The notes beneath the pieces were generated by a model. The model worked only from the letters and a program-made list of their open reading frames with translations. It was not told where the DNA came from and searched no databases. Shown here in pieces: positions 1-15,728 of a DNA stretch of 64,000 nucleotides. Source of the DNA: an uncultured virus (IMG/VR IMGVR_UViG_3300017754_003767) (Duplodnaviria > Heunggongvirae > Uroviricota > Caudoviricetes). Made by a program: the position numbers and the translations under genes. The stretch lies in the IMG/VR virus record IMGVR_UViG_3300017754_003767. One strand, 5' to 3'. Each line of letters opens with the position of its first letter. Within the stretch, counting starts at the first letter, position 1.

Positions 1-1
1 T

Positions 2-346
2 AAGTTAAGTTGGGATAAATGGGTAGATAACAATAAAGAACATTATCAAAAAGTTAAAAAACAAGGGCAAGATTTATTACATCACAATCACAAAAAATAT
101 GAGCGCAGAGGAATAACAAAAGAACAATACGATATTGTGCTTGAGGCCCAGGAAGGTTTATGCGCAATTTGCCAAGAGCCTCCCAAGGATAAACAATCTT
201 TAGCTATGGACCATAATCATCAAACCAATGAGTTCAGAGGTTTATTGTGCAAAGAGTGCAATAGAGCCCTAGGTTTATTTGGTGATAATATAGATGTATT
301 GACAAACGCAGTCACTTATCTTAAAGAACGAGGAAGTTATGGCTGA
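2..346 (+). CDS. Endonuclease VII-family (HNH-like) homing endonuclease, 5'-truncated by the window edge
   Basis: Frame is open from base 2; motif GITKEQY..L.AQ.G.CAIC...DHNH....RGLLCKECNRALGLFGD. Confidence 0.85.
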   Translation, partial: KLSWDKWVDNNKEHYQKVKKQGQDLLHHNHKKYERRGITKEQYDIVLEAQEGLCAICQEPPKDKQSLAMDHNHQTNEFRGLLCKECNRALGLFGDNIDVLTNAVTYLKERGSYG

Positions 347-647
347 AGACAAAAGCAAGTACACAAAACCAGACTTACGTGAACGTATTAAAAACCGTGT
401 AATGCGCGAAGGTCGTGGCGGAAAACCAGGGGAATGGTCGTAGCCGTGAGGCTAAATAACTTCAGCACGTAAAGCTCAACTTGTAGCACAAGAATATAAG
501 TCGGAGGGTGGCGGATATAAAGGCGGTAAAGGTGAGAAGCAAAAGTCTTTGGAGAAGTGGGGAGAAGAAAAGTGGCAAACCAAAGACGAGTATGAGAAAC
601 GTTCTAAAGCTAAGGCTGCAGCCAAGAGATATAAAGATGGCGAGTGA
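339..647 (+). CDS. DUF5872-like basic protein (N-terminal half), interrupted by a 24-nt in-frame insert at 441-464
   Basis: ATG339 gives MAEDKSKYTKPDLRERIKNRVMREGRGGKPGEWS, then the insert, then in the same frame ARKAQLVAQEYKSEGGGYKGGKGEKQKSLEKWGEEKWQTK...TGA647; missed by the ORF track. Confidence 0.75.
441..464 (+). other. Candidate translational bypass element (stop codon in hairpin, 24 nt)
   Basis: TCG|TAG CCG TGA GGC TAA ATA ACT TCA|GCA; hairpin TAGCC-GTGA-GGCTA; Ser codons at both ends. Confidence 0.65.
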
Positions 648-846
648 TAAAGCAATTCAACCTGGCTACACCAAGCGTTACTTACCGGAAAAAGCATGGG
701 CTTCTTTATCCAAGGAAGAAAGAGAGGAGACTGACCGCAAGAAACGCGCTGGTAGTAGAGAAGGTAAACAGTTTGTACCTAACACAGAGACAGCAAAGAA
801 AGCTGGTAAAGCAGCCCGTGCATCCAAACGTTACAAAGATAAATAA
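637..846 (+). CDS. DUF5872-like protein, C-terminal half encoded as a separate ORF
   Basis: ATG637 overlaps the upstream stop; KRYLPEKAWASLSKEEREETDRKKRAGSREGKQFVPNT motif. Confidence 0.7.
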   Translation: MASDKAIQPGYTKRYLPEKAWASLSKEEREETDRKKRAGSREGKQFVPNTETAKKAGKAARASKRYKDK

Positions 847-879
847 CTCACTTATACTTAATAAAGATTCCTGATTATC

Positions 880-1050
880 ATGGAAAAGAAAAAGGCTATC
901 CCCCCCAAGAAAGCTGTACCGCCCGCAAAAGGCAAAGCTGCTCCCCCTGTCAAAGGCAAAGGTGGCGCATCTGCCAAGCAAACTGAAGCCCGCGACAAGT
1001 TCAAAGAAATGATTGCGAAGAAGAAAGAAGCTGCCGCTAAAAAGAAATAA
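880..1050 (+). CDS. Small Lys/Ala/Pro-rich basic protein (56 aa)
   Basis: MEKKKAIPPKKAVPPAKGK...AAAKKK*; TATACT box upstream. Confidence 0.6.
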   Translation: MEKKKAIPPKKAVPPAKGKAAPPVKGKGGASAKQTEARDKFKEMIAKKKEAAAKKK

Positions 1051-1071
1051 GGTATCGCGCTATACTTTCAG

Positions 1072-1153
1072 TGCTCAATACACACGTCTCGTCCCGTAGG
1101 TATTGGCGGTAAGTAGTTAGTTTTAGTCCTGGTCTGAGCAACCAGGATTTTTT
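1072..1153 (+). ncRNA. Putative small RNA with its own -10 box and intrinsic terminator
   Basis: TATACT at 1061-1066; hairpin CAATAC/GTATTG; terminator TCCTGGT-ctgagca-ACCAGGA followed by a T-tract. Confidence 0.45.
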
Positions 1154-1168
1154 GTGTATAATAAAATT

Positions 1169-1407
1169 GATAGAGATCAGGTCCCTGCTTGCACACCTGA
1201 TCCATCATCGAAGTCCTGGGTTTCCAGGCCGGAGGTTTGATAGCCTTTGCCAGCTTGATTCCCTGGTGCGCCCTCGACCCATTTGGCAAGCGCGACGAAT
1301 CAGTAACACCCCTCATGCCTAGCTTGATAACGAGGACGGCTTTACACCGGGCGCACGGGCTTGCAGGCATCCTCACTTAGTTATCAATGATGCACAAATA
1401 GAGGGGT
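1169..1407 (+). ncRNA. Large structured ncRNA, possibly manA-like
   Basis: TATAAT at 1157-1162; stems GATCAGG/CCTGATC, TTGCCA/TGGCAA, TGATTC/GAATCA, TTGATAAC/GTTATCAA, ACCCCTC/GAGGGGT; no credible ORF; next to tRNA-like genes. Confidence 0.5.
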
Positions 1408-1410
1408 CAC

Positions 1411-1483
1411 TCAACCGGTAGTCCAGTGGCAGGACACCCCGACAAGGGAGTTAGATAGCTGGTTCGATTCCAGCACGGTTGAT
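1411..1483 (+). tRNA. tRNA-like RNA with shrunken anticodon arm (possible GAC/Val remnant)
   Basis: Acceptor TCAACCG/CGGTTGA, D-arm GTCC/GGAC, T-arm GCTGG-TTCGATT-CCAGC; anticodon stem only about 3 bp. Confidence 0.55.
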
Positions 1484-1484
1484 T

Positions 1485-1560
1485 CACCTGGTCCGAGACA
1501 ATTGGATAGTACGGTTACTGCCGCTGCAGGACGATGTAGGTTCGAATCCTACCCAGGTGC
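1485..1560 (+). tRNA. tRNA-like RNA with perfect acceptor and T arms but aberrant D/anticodon region
   Basis: CACCTGG/CCAGGTG; GTAGG-TTCGAAT-CCTAC; no assignable anticodon. Confidence 0.55.
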
Positions 1561-1589
1561 TTTATACTGAGCGCATCTTGGCAAGTTAG

Positions 1590-2222
1590 ATGAGCTACTT
1601 AAATCACAACCTGCCGACATTTACTTGCTACATCCGAAACGAATTCCTATACAACCACAAACAAGGCCATGGTGACGTAACGTTATGCGACGTACACTCA
1701 GTGGCATCCCTGGAAAAACGCGTTCCTTTATTTGAGGTGTTCCTGGAGAATGGTGTTAACTGGACAAGGCGTCCAATCCACGCCCTTTGCTGGAAACCAG
1801 ATGCCCCTAAGCCTGAGCTTAATGAGTGCATGTGGTGGGATTGTTTTTCTCCGTATATTGACGTACAGGTCAGGTCACGCCTTTCAAACTTACGTGCAGA
1901 GCTAATTAATTTCAAAGGTGAGAAGAAGGGTGGCATCTACATGTTTACCCTTGATTGGTCTTGGGAATCTAAATCAACTCTTAATACAAACTTTAGTGAA
2001 ACACCTGAGCACAAGTGTGCACACTTCTTCCGAATGGACGACGGCAATTTTTACGCATACCCCAATAACCGAATCATCTGGTACGACGATGCATGGCTTA
2101 AGAATCGGATTGAAAAAAATCCTGGATACGAGATTGACTTGACTGAGTACAGTGTGGAGAACTCACGGATGATTGAAACGTCCGATCATTTCATATACGA
2201 GACATCCACTACGGACGGCTAA
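1590..2222 (+). CDS. Conserved hypothetical cyanophage protein
   Basis: 210-aa ORF with globular composition; TATACT box upstream. Confidence 0.75.
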   Translation: MSYLNHNLPTFTCYIRNEFLYNHKQGHGDVTLCDVHSVASLEKRVPLFEVFLENGVNWTRRPIHALCWKPDAPKPELNECMWWDCFSPYIDVQVRSRLSNLRAELINFKGEKKGGIYMFTLDWSWESKSTLNTNFSETPEHKCAHFFRMDDGNFYAYPNNRIIWYDDAWLKNRIEKNPGYEIDLTEYSVENSRMIETSDHFIYETSTTDG

Positions 2223-2253
2223 CTGTTTGTTGTTATATTTAAGACAACAATGA

Positions 2254-2511
2254 TTGGCTTTAGTGCCAACTTCTAAAGAAAAACTCCAGCGCAATAGACA
2301 AAAGTTTCTTGAGTACAAGAAGACTTTGAATTGCCAGCACTGTGGACTGAATGATCATCGTGTCCTTGAGTTTCACCACGTTGGTGACAAGGACCATAAC
2401 ATATCAAATATGGTTAACCATGGATACGGCTGGCGCCGCATCGAAGAAGAAATAAAGAAATGTATTCCGCTGTGCTGCAACTGCCATAGGCTTGAGCACT
2501 GGGTTGATTAA
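2254..2511 (+). CDS. Small HNH endonuclease
   Basis: CQHCG...LEFHH...KCIPLCCNCHRLEH. Confidence 0.75.
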   Translation: MALVPTSKEKLQRNRQKFLEYKKTLNCQHCGLNDHRVLEFHHVGDKDHNISNMVNHGYGWRRIEEEIKKCIPLCCNCHRLEHWVD

Positions 2512-2544
2512 TATGCTATGCTATTCATAATTAAAGTTTAAATT

Positions 2545-3000
2545 ATGAAAACATGCCGCCAATGTGGCTTGGTAAAGCCGTTAAAAGATTTTTACAATGA
2601 GCCAAGAGTTAAAGATGGCAAGCAAGCAAGATGCAAGGCATGTCATGGAAAAACAACAGAAAAATACCGCAAAAAAAATCCTGAGCTTTACAGAAAAGCA
2701 AGTTTAAAAAATTGGCATTCTTTGGATGCTGAAAAAAGACAAGCAAGATGGATTAAGCGGTATGGTATTACTGCAAACGATTACAAACAATTACTTGAAA
2801 AACAAGCAAGTGTTTGTAAGATTTGCCAAAAACCTTGTTCTTCTCGTCAGTTTTTGTCAGTAGACCATTGTCACAAAACAGGAAAAGTTAGAGGCTTGCT
2901 TTGCGTCAAGTGCAATACAGCCTTGGGAATGTTAGATGACAATATTCAGCATTTTGAAACTGCAATTGAATATCTCAAGAGTTTCGAAGAGAAGCTTTAA
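2545..3000 (+). CDS. Endonuclease VII-family homing endonuclease
   Basis: N-terminal CxxC..CxxC; RYGIT..Y..LL..Q...CKIC...VDHCH.TGKVRGLLCVKCN.ALG; AT-rich. Confidence 0.88.
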   Translation: MKTCRQCGLVKPLKDFYNEPRVKDGKQARCKACHGKTTEKYRKKNPELYRKASLKNWHSLDAEKRQARWIKRYGITANDYKQLLEKQASVCKICQKPCSSRQFLSVDHCHKTGKVRGLLCVKCNTALGMLDDNIQHFETAIEYLKSFEEKL

Positions 3001-15221: not shown

Positions 15222-15728
15222 CTAGCCATTAGGCTCAAATTCTTTTTTAAGTTTTTCATACTGTCGGCGTTTGCGCTCTTCCGCTTTAATTTTTTTCATA
15301 CGGTCCCTTTCTTCTTGTTCTAAACGAGCTTTGCATTCTGCATCAGTCTCATAACGTGTTCTGTATAAACAAGGATATTCATTGTAATAATCACGTTTAA
15401 TTTCAATACCTTCCCATCCTTCTTCAATTAATTCCTCTATGTACTCCATGTATTCTTTCAAGGTTTGATCATACCCTGGCACAAAAGTCCCACAGTCATA
15501 CTCGCGGATTAATTGCTTTGGTAATTGATACGGTGGCATTAAATTACCATCCTCATCAATGATTCCTGCGTTCATAAGAAACTGCCTAGCTTTTTCTGGT
15601 TCTTTGTACTCTTCAATCAGTTTGTCAATTTGCTGAGAATACAGCTTCTCCGATGATAGGGAACTGTTCACAGAAGATGTCTTTGATTTGTTCTGCAATT
15701 TGTCGGTGTTCAAGTTGGGTTGATTCAT
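15222..15728 (-). CDS. Hypothetical protein (start uncertain)
   Basis: AT-rich; C-terminal ERKRRQYEKLKKEFE coiled coil. Confidence 0.55.
   Translation of the reverse strand: MNQPNLNTDKLQNKSKTSSVNSSLSSEKLYSQQIDKLIEEYKEPEKARQFLMNAGIIDEDGNLMPPYQLPKQLIREYDCGTFVPGYDQTLKEYMEYIEELIEEGWEGIEIKRDYYNEYPCLYRTRYETDAECKARLEQEERDRMKKIKAEERKRRQYEKLKKEFEPNG

Follow-up and report, generated by a model that had tools for sequence, protein, structure and literature searches.

For decades long-range translational bypass rested on one experimental system, gene 60 of phage T4. Byps, which Lang et al. are said to have described in 2014 from mitochondria of Magnusiomyces capitatus, are reportedly short coding inserts that are skipped through matched take-off and landing codons and that occur as many mobile copies across many genes of one genome. 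In the Streptomyces phage phiHau3, the accessible text of one paper reports bypass at a rare UUA codon of the terminase gene g6/7, with the junction peptide found by mass spectrometry, and presents it as regulatory (PMC10732093). A preprint on the gene 60 cassette and the homing endonuclease MobA places that cassette, in the parts available, 'exclusively' in Topo2L and calls it 'unique' (Manning & Atkins, bioRxiv 10.1101/2022.08.31.505936). Here we describe a 64,000-nt stretch of DNA from an uncultured virus of the Caudoviricetes (IMG/VR record IMGVR_UViG_3300017754_003767; this whole stretch is called the window below) in which a 94-codon DUF5872-like gene (339..647, + strand, as are all features given here) is interrupted after codon 34, between Ser34 and Ala35. 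We propose that ribosomes hop over the insert by a programmed bypass of the gene 60 type, which is the best reading of the sequence evidence and to which we give a probability of about 0.8; judged from the same evidence, this single mechanism accounts for all 77 alleles of the interruption that were collected.

In the window the interrupted gene runs from ATG 339 to GGA AAA CCA GGG GAA TGG TCG (438-440), continues with TAG CCG TGA GGC TAA ATA ACT TCA (441-464) and then with GCA CGT AAA GCT, and closes with the stop TGA at 645-647; translated straight across the insert it reads MAEDKSKYTKPDLRERIKNRVMREGRGGKPGEWS-stop-P-stop-G-stop-ITSARKAQLVAQEYK... Alignment to uninterrupted homologues sets the coding gap at 24 nt (441..464), counted as for T4 from the stop codon through the landing codon, with TAG, TGA and TAA in frame. 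It is preceded by the putative take-off codon UCG of Ser34 (438..440) and begins with a UAG stop inside a 5-bp hairpin, UAGCC-GUGA-GGCUA, with a GNRA loop (441..454). An AU-rich spacer, AAUAACU (455..461), leads to the putative landing codon UCA, again Ser (462..464), which is the counterpart of the target gene's native Ser codon and to which the 3' boundary of the inserted element maps. The native C-terminal 60 codons follow (465..647, ARKAQLVAQEYK...KDGE, stop TGA 645-647) and are 98% and 97% identical in amino acids to those of the insert-free alleles L002 and L004 respectively. In a 27-nt context the hairpin folds at -7.1 kcal/mol (z-score -2.6; 4 of 200 shuffles were equally stable), and in a 61-nt context the fold is unexceptional (z-score -0.47); a 6-bp form found among the relatives folds at -10.4 kcal/mol. 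The 24-mer is present once in the 64-kb window at up to 3 mismatches, with a chance expectation of 0.

The nearest cultured relative is Synechococcus phage S-EIVl, which has a 94-codon homologue without interruption, reading ..GQWSARKSQ.., and beyond it counterparts of the two genes that come next in the window, in matching order. A cyanobacterial host is presumed from this partial similarity. The label 'DUF5872-like' stands for a weak sequence similarity, as scores against Pfam DUF5872 were 17.5-24.8 bits, below the gathering threshold of 27.5, for the window pieces, for the read-through with X and for three intact alleles. That the insert is an artefact of assembly or sequencing has a negligible chance of being right: DNA contigs from three public freshwater runs, one of which may be the source sample of the window, cross 441-464 ungapped (X1 record 1, 250-556; X2 record 8, 250-544; X3 record 22, 432-547), and 111 other loci have a homologous insert at the same codon. 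Beside the window allele, run X1 also contains one without the insert (loose end at 468). A preliminary description, drawn up from the letters of the window, had proposed an exact 24-nt insert in a DUF5872-like gene that normally reads KPGQWSARKAQ uninterrupted, a GNRA hairpin at its start and a stem shared with T4 gene 60. The insert is present in real DNA and its exact length was borne out by the S-EIVl homologue and by the insert-free relatives counted below; the hairpin is as described, and the T4 sequence given there agrees with the T4 record (gga, then tagcc-ttcg-ggcta, then tctatagaaatacctca...ttgga, then tta), the 5-bp stem being identical.

Relatives were gathered by a scan of viral contigs with the C-terminal 60 amino acids (best 80 of 251 relatives), by a pattern scan that added 5 loci, by a viral scan with the upstream endonuclease that added 48 loci and by a metagenome scan with the endonuclease alignment (best 80 of 265 relatives). 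The pattern scan was conditioned on a GTGA loop and is therefore biased for loop statistics, and its 5 loci stay in the pooled counts; all other insert-bearing loci came from protein-based scans, which are blind to the gap sequence. Junctions were placed by tblastn of the two gene halves. The 80 metagenome loci comprised 56 with a junction, 7 cut by contig ends before it and 17 with distant endonuclease homologues alone (33-42% identity) and no cassette. An insert at this codon was found in 112 loci including the window, which collapse to 77 distinct alleles (identical sequences of N-terminal part, gap and C-terminal part merged) with 27 gap variants. The insert-free set is 72 loci, 71 scored as gap 0 plus L052; the 'gap 13' first given to L052 is an extrapolation artefact, the sequence reading insert-free (GGKKGEWSARKA), and this locus was left out of the insert-free codon counts and trees. 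All 71 of the others read GQWS-(A/G)-R-(K/R) with no insert, and a later scan gave 79 further insert-free relatives. Two cassette-bearing contigs of 2.7-2.9 kb, L297 and L298, are binned into metagenome-assembled genomes of Bacteroidota (Crocinitomicaceae and 'Bacteroidetes bacterium'); they are probably mis-binned phage DNA, are outside the counts, and no host is inferred from them. L297 has a 28th gap variant, with a GCAA loop and the spacer ATTACTTATT.

The signals expected of a hop are the most constant part of the insert. The take-off codon is TCG in all 77 alleles, whereas the same Ser codon in the 71 insert-free loci is TCT in 25, AGT in 15, TCA in 13, TCG in 11, TCC in 4 and AGC in 3. 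The codon directly 3' of it is TAG in 77/77, and the stem TAGCC/GGCTA is kept in 75/77. Loops are GTAA in 42 alleles, GTGA in 25, GGGA in 3, TTAG in 2, ATAA in 2 and GCAA, GAAA and GAGA in one each, so that 73/77 are of the GNRA type. The landing codon is TCG in 72 of the 77 alleles, matching the take-off codon, TCT in 3 and TCA in 2, the latter pair being the window and L156. Third-base diversity is 0 at take-off and 0.125 at landing, and diversity is 0-0.05 at the ten stem positions; twelve four-fold sites in the element-borne codons next to the gap average 0.45. Both the length and the sequence of the spacer are hypervariable, and its composition is AU-rich throughout (summed over the 27 variants: A 124, T 103, C 26, G 6). 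Three loci, L110, L166 and L174, have a 24-nt gap, TAGCT ATAA TATTA AATAATT TCG, from which the hairpin has been lost (fold energy 0); the UAG, the AU-rich tract and the TCG landing codon remain in this form, along with both coding parts and an intact endonuclease.

Gap length varies from 23 nt (3 alleles) through 24 (28), 27 (28), 28 (10), 29 (5) and 32 (2) to 33 nt (1). The window's 24 nt, taken at first for a minimal gap, is thus not the shortest form. The length is not a multiple of three, and the frame is broken, in 20/77 alleles, and every gap variant has 2-4 in-frame stops; read-through therefore cannot work. Reassignment of UAG was rejected on the same grounds, as the gap also holds TGA and TAA and 20/77 gaps shift the frame. 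Gaps of 23-33 nt lead to the same ..EWS-ARKAQ.. junction only if decoding jumps from the take-off Ser to the Ser at the end of the gap. L129 (33 nt) and L168 (29 nt), which are nearest neighbours, are one 4-nt repeat unit apart inside the gap and both keep the downstream open reading frame (ORF). In every allele the first UCN triplet past take-off, in any frame, is the one that restores ..WS-ARKAQ... The TC dinucleotide precedes the landing codon in 0/27 variants, compared with a mean of 7.9 and a minimum of 2 in 10,000 mononucleotide shuffles, a figure that is not a clean probability because the gap variants are related by descent.

We propose that a ribosome translating the 34 element-borne codons would halt with UAG in the A site and peptidyl-tRNA-Ser paired to UCG, and that the UAGCC-GNRA-GGCUA hairpin would form at the A site. 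The peptidyl-tRNA would then unpair, the mRNA would slide through, and the anticodon would pair again with the first downstream UCN, which is UCG in most relatives and UCA in the window; translation would resume at Ala-Arg-Lys and give the normal 94-aa protein with a WSARK junction. We infer the hop, its efficiency and the tRNA species used from the anatomy, polymorphism, endonuclease linkage and conservation pattern observed. The tRNA may be tRNA-Ser(UGA), in which case one anticodon would have to read UCG, UCA and UCU. A hop of the gene 60 type from UCG to UCA with a WSARK junction had already been suggested for the window, and the sequence features that this predicts are all present there and appear more strongly across the 77 alleles.

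The insert is not a free-standing 24-mer. What the preliminary description did not reach is that it forms the end of a homing-endonuclease element that also carries replacement codons 1-34 of its target gene; by sequence comparison a mobile element of about 763 nt has the insert as its 3' end, and window positions 2-464 are its right-hand part. The occupied locus L045 and the empty locus L051 are 99.2% identical in both flanks and differ by 763 nt, placed between CAGTG and TCGGC, and other occupied and empty pairs confirmed these break points. The empty site reads CAG TGG TCG GCA. An occupied locus starts with CAG TGA, which closes a 32-aa remnant of the native N-terminus, and continues with a 36-nt leader, a 202-codon endonuclease ORF, a new ATG with 34 codons, the gap, and the native Ser codon with the rest of the gene. 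Most loci whose sequence extends far enough have this native remnant, which terminates in ..GQ and a stop, upstream of the endonuclease. In the window, the 3' 114 codons of the endonuclease gene are present (2..346; 202 codons in relatives, the 5' end lying beyond the window edge; Pfam Endonuclease_7, E 1.3e-23) and its stop overlaps the next start codon (ATGGCTGA), after which comes the element-borne copy of target-gene codons 1-34 (339..440), ending ...GGKPGEWS, an N-terminus common to the insert-bearing alleles. Full-length 202-aa homologues have an invariant DHNH..N motif, N-terminal CxxC pairs and a C-terminal Endonuclease_7 domain (residues 122-196, Pfam E 7e-23).

Linkage of gap and nuclease is complete: the endonuclease or a remnant of it adjoins the insert in 112/112 insert-bearing loci and in 0/72 insert-free loci. 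In L082/L134, L130, L129, L124 and L123/L201 it is down to 18-91 codons, and the gap and both coding parts persist. Four insert-free loci have a different Endonuclease VII gene, 39-44% identical, 1.6-2.8 kb downstream, like the window's gene at 2545-3000. On this comparison the element is a homing element, its nuclease being present or absent at a fixed conserved site between near-identical genomes. The site itself, the invariant GQWSARKAQ core, is the most conserved spot of the gene. Element-borne N-termini are 85-100% identical to that of the window in the 23/24/27-nt classes and 56-85% identical in the 28-33-nt classes; native N-termini are 58-74% identical to it and read GQWS. Identity in the C-terminal part is independent of insert state, as seen in the empty L002 at 98%. 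Residue 32 is Glu in 76/77 insert-bearing alleles and in 0/71 insert-free loci, which have Gln. Any nascent-peptide signal that primes take-off would lie in these 34 element-borne codons, which are conserved and differ from native copies. The insert-free L254, L270, L271, L276, L281 and L052 natively read GEWS, so the Q32E change is tolerated by the protein. In the DNA, the nuclease target in the GQWSARKAQ core would be disrupted by the gap, perhaps together with Q32E and synonymous changes, so that the carrier would be immune and phages with an empty site would be cut and converted; this immunity role and the cleavage site are carried over, by analogy, from the account of MobA and T4 in the accessible part of the preprint (bioRxiv 10.1101/2022.08.31.505936). 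The 36-nt leader (L045 1735-1770, at the same place in most occupied loci, and upstream of the window's first base) has a conserved 7-bp inverted repeat, TTGTGCT-N10-AGCACAA, just 5' of the endonuclease ATG that may control nuclease expression.

If ribosomes reach the downstream half, it should still be under selection as protein, and its sequence points that way. In 73/73 non-redundant alleles that reach the stop, the downstream frame stays uninterrupted over 47-62 codons (120 in one allele), and a recognizable C-terminal half is present wherever a cassette-type endonuclease is followed by enough sequence. In pairwise comparisons of that half by the Nei-Gojobori method, the proportions of synonymous (pS) and non-synonymous (pN) differences were 0.82 and 0.12 in the 23/24/27-nt class, 0.61 and 0.114 in the 28/29/33-nt class (first sample) and 0.86 and 0.20 in insert-free alleles, with a downstream pN/pS of about 0.1-0.18. 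Much of this divergence could predate the insertions, and insert-only clades of the C-terminal tree were therefore examined. In a clade of 17 alleles with gaps of 28, 29, 32 and 33 nt, 8 independent nearest-neighbour pairs showed 91.3 differences at 207 synonymous sites and 56.7 at 849 non-synonymous sites (binomial P 9e-29 against neutrality); in a second insert-only clade, 3 pairs showed 31.5 synonymous and 9.5 non-synonymous differences. No insert-free member of either clade was present in the samples (best 80 of 251 relatives; the matches listed in the scan for the second clade). The best insert-free relatives of the 28/29-nt clade among the matches listed, where known clade members were not recovered, were at 83% and 77% amino acid identity (L217 and L222). 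On these comparisons the downstream half is under purifying selection, including in the clade with 28/29/32-nt gaps, and the neutral decay that would have told against a hop was not seen in the insert-bearing clades.

Several points weigh against a programmed hop or limit the case for it. Four of 24 listed runs were compared with the window, and the one RNA-library contig that matched (X20) covers 259-435 and ends before the gap, so that it bears on neither splicing nor expression. Stem covariation, which the preliminary description had named as a check, is absent among the 77 alleles: the stem is invariant in 75, the two exceptions lose the whole stem, and a recent common origin of the cassettes could be part of the reason for its conservation. 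Those two alleles (L110/L174 type) keep both ORFs without a hairpin. In the window itself the take-off UCG and the landing UCA differ in the third base. The landing site, described earlier as wobble-matched, is a UCN codon, as in 77/77 alleles; TCA is a minority state (2/77) identical to the Ser codon of the closest empty-site allele, L004, and to judge from this alignment the window's TCA looks like a native codon left at the recombination boundary. A Shine-Dalgarno (SD)-like triplet (GAG, GGG, GGA or AGG) 5-7 nt 5' of the landing codon is absent from the gap variants, where the sole SD-like run (GAGG, AAGG or GGGAGG) lies in the hairpin, 9-19 nt upstream of landing, and the spacers are built of A, T and C, save for a TGA in the 28/29-nt forms. 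Near-cognate starts, AUA or AUU, are found in frame in the 24- and 27-nt classes. Many insertions look recent, from the L045/L051 flanks, from L104 and L009, which are 97% identical in the C-terminal part, and from the intact native N-terminal remnants, and for such alleles an intact C-terminal half says little because the insertion is recent. The insert-only status of the two clades could also be a sampling effect.

The hairpin's purine run and the AUA and AUU codons raise the possibility of a split gene, in which a 34-aa peptide would be released at UAG and a second start in or just after the gap would give a 60-aa C-terminal piece, the two pieces acting jointly or separately. The GAGG or AAGG resembles an SD core, and in the 24- and 27-nt classes the AUA or AUU comes after the last stop and before the landing codon. 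An AUG inside GAAUGG is in frame in the 23-nt class, and some other DUF5872-type genes have been split by related endonucleases into two ORFs, each with an AUG of its own (L199). However, in the 28-, 29- and 33-nt classes and in one 24-nt variant, neither a start nor a near-cognate codon separates SARKAQ from the last in-frame stop: the 28/29-nt classes have a downstream-frame TGA directly before the landing codon, and in the 33-nt form UUA is all that lies between that stop and the landing codon. Re-initiation therefore cannot be general. Nor would it give a reason for a TCG take-off in 77/77, a matched TCG landing in 72/77 and a gap free of UC. An AlphaFold2 model of the intact protein, of low confidence (mean predicted local distance difference test score, pLDDT, 63), has helices at 11-23, 35-47 and 74-93 and puts the junction inside one small domain, flanked by a conserved loop and by the beginning of predicted helix 2. 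We consider a split gene with re-initiation very unlikely.

Another possibility is that the 23-33 nt between the Ser codons are excised from the RNA, the ends joined and the message translated in the ordinary way. A direct repeat, UCG...UCG, sets the limits of the gap, and the conserved hairpin at its start could be a mark for a nuclease. We know of no bacterial or phage splicing system for introns this small, and the gap of T4 gene 60, the nearest known relative, stays in the mRNA. Rfam searches gave no group I or group II intron match at the site, where the insert is 23-33 nt long, and no family at or near the gap, with three sub-threshold matches elsewhere in 1-3000. A UAG exactly at the A-site position and avoidance of UC are expected of a scanning peptidyl-tRNA and not of splicing, and removal at the RNA level thus appears highly improbable.

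The recent look of many insertions would also suit an element that simply inactivates a dispensable gene, whose downstream half would go untranslated and be intact only through recency. Homing elements can spread at a cost, and the gene is small and without an assigned function. Such a tolerated kill is nevertheless hard to square with the synonymous excess between insert-bearing nearest neighbours in the two insert-only clades, or with a downstream frame open in all 73 complete alleles. The cassette has aged, with endonucleases down to 58% identical and pS of 0.50-0.57 in the element-borne codons, and yet the UAG, the stem, the take-off and the landing codon are fixed. A start codon and 34 homologous codons carried by the element and under purifying selection (pN 0.042, pS 0.50 in the 23/24/27-nt class) would be pointless in a dead gene. 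We regard this explanation, too, as having a very small chance of being correct.

A programmed hop, in comparison, would place this locus beside the T4 and MobA elements, with which it shares much. As far as the accessible parts of the preprint go (bioRxiv 10.1101/2022.08.31.505936), the common features are matched take-off and landing codons with UAG directly after take-off, GNRA and UUAG loops within the MobA family, an AU-rich 3' part of the gap, and gap lengths that break the frame in some members. In both, the endonuclease ORF runs into the start of the ORF downstream, the element brings its own homologous N-terminal region ('HomR/NTE' in the MobA element) 5' of the gap, and the landing codon marks where the element ends; in both, the endonuclease is progressively lost with the gap kept, and recent insertions leave presence and absence between near-identical genomes. 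The UAGCC/GGCUA stem is identical to that of T4 and is likewise capped by a stable tetraloop, UUCG in T4.

The differences are as clear. The target is a 94-aa DUF5872-like gene and not the topoisomerase gene Topo2L, and the endonuclease is of the Endonuclease_7 type, where Topo2L has MobA or, from the preprint text available, its known GIY-YIG/VSR replacements. Homology of the endonuclease to MobA was rejected (BLASTP E 14; in MobA of HY01 a weak HNH match falls at residues 24-43, compared with Endonuclease_7 at 122-196 here). The codons are Ser UCG instead of Gly or Asp, the gap is 23-33 nt instead of 50 nt (20 nt in one Aeromonas clade, according to the same partial source), the hairpin has 5-6 bp in contrast to the 10-bp stem of T4, and the SD-like triplet that T4 has 5-7 nt before landing is missing. 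Unlike MobA elements, the present one supplies the whole N-terminus with its start codon and leaves upstream a remnant that is a 32-aa stub without a C-terminal extension, and its phages are S-EIVl-like and from freshwater, whereas those of MobA are T4-like myoviruses. By these sequence comparisons the element is outside the MobA/gene 60 family as that family is defined.

Other systems resemble it in single respects. Like byps, it is a short skipped coding insert with matched codons; unlike them, it is single-copy in the window, keeps to one gene and is invariably accompanied by an endonuclease element, and a multi-copy element of the byps kind was rejected, with one copy in 64 kb at up to 3 mismatches. 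Two look-alikes of the hairpin, at 15223 and 52067, were also dismissed, being within chance (3 found, 1.28 expected) and not lying in visibly interrupted ORFs. The phiHau3 case shares a phage gene outside the topoisomerase family and ribosomes that hop a short coding gap, as is predicted here; its trigger is a rare sense codon in place of a stop in a hairpin, and 'homing endonuclease' occurs 0 times in the accessible text of that paper (PMC10732093). MobE in nrdA, as summarized in the available part of the preprint (bioRxiv 10.1101/2022.08.31.505936), is likewise an endonuclease gene in a conserved coding site that supplies new termini. There and in L199, however, two separately initiated ORFs result, whereas here the downstream part has no start of its own and the gap has hop signals.

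Full-text literature searches (for bypass in cyanophage or with a homing endonuclease, for S-EIVl and for DUF5872, with subscription-only papers outside their coverage) found no description of this element. From its sequence it is likely to be a second natural family of gene 60-type hop, with a new target gene, a new phage group and an endonuclease unrelated to MobA. If the hop is real, an endonuclease combined with a hop would be a repeatable evolutionary solution and not a one-off, and the design with a stop in a hairpin would work with another tRNA (Ser), another nascent peptide, a gap of half the length and, probably, cyanobacterial ribosomes. The relatives provide a natural series of mutants, with 27 gap variants, seven lengths, eight loop sequences, three landing codons and a hairpin-less form, that bears on the minimal signal, the need for an internal SD, the choice of landing site and the contribution of the hairpin; the form in L110, L166 and L174 is a natural test of whether the hairpin is needed. 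In annotation, genes of this kind are now called as two fragments or as pseudogenes.

A more tentative idea, which we think is probably not correct but deserves mention, is that the 14-nt module with UAG in a hairpin and the matched codons form a portable RNA device that shares its descent with the T4 gene 60 cassette and has moved among unrelated homing elements, target genes and phage lineages of Proteobacteria and, presumably, Cyanobacteria. The hairpin cannot decide between shared ancestry and convergence, because UAG dictates three of its five stem pairs and the remaining two are the C-G pairs that usually close a tetraloop. Were a portable device involved, then a stop-containing 5-bp tetraloop hairpin, an AU-rich spacer without cognate triplets and a repeated P-site codon would come close to a minimal, ribosome-universal signal for a long-range hop (at least 23 nt), and homing endonucleases might use the hop generally, entering essential conserved codons without killing the gene.

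Related endonucleases, 41-42% identical to that of the cassette, are found in or beside other DUF5872-type genes in L199, L200 and L203-L209. In L199 and L200 the endonuclease is inserted after a GGGY motif and the gene is split into two ORFs with no gap cassette; in L203 and L206 it lies directly upstream of an intact gene whose core is GGKHSARAMQLA in place of GQWSARKAQ. The nuclease family thus seems to specialize on DUF5872-type genes, with different ways of sparing them. The next gene in the window (637-846, MASDKAIQPGYTKRYLPEKAWASLS...GKQFVPN...) overlaps the stop of the interrupted gene, and its product matches the C-terminal part of one longer DUF5872-type protein in L199 and L206; from this alignment, the interrupted gene and the gene at 637-846 may be the split form of that longer protein.

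Further along the window, a second Endonuclease VII-type gene (2545-3000, Pfam E 1.4e-26) is 47% identical to the cassette nuclease over residues 34-109 and is preceded by an 85-aa ORF with Cys/His pairs and no Pfam match (2254-2511); no interrupted gene was seen beside these two. From its gene content, this region of the window is a cluster of free-standing nuclease genes. At 1411-1483 there is a tRNA-like gene for which ARAGORN gives 'anticodon (ca)' with an irregular anticodon loop, and for which the Rfam tRNA-Sec match is sub-threshold (21 against 47 bits). The same form is present in L002 and L004, and the counterpart in L104 is a regular tRNA-Leu(CAA); the window gene could be a decayed tRNA or a tRNA with an unusual anticodon loop.

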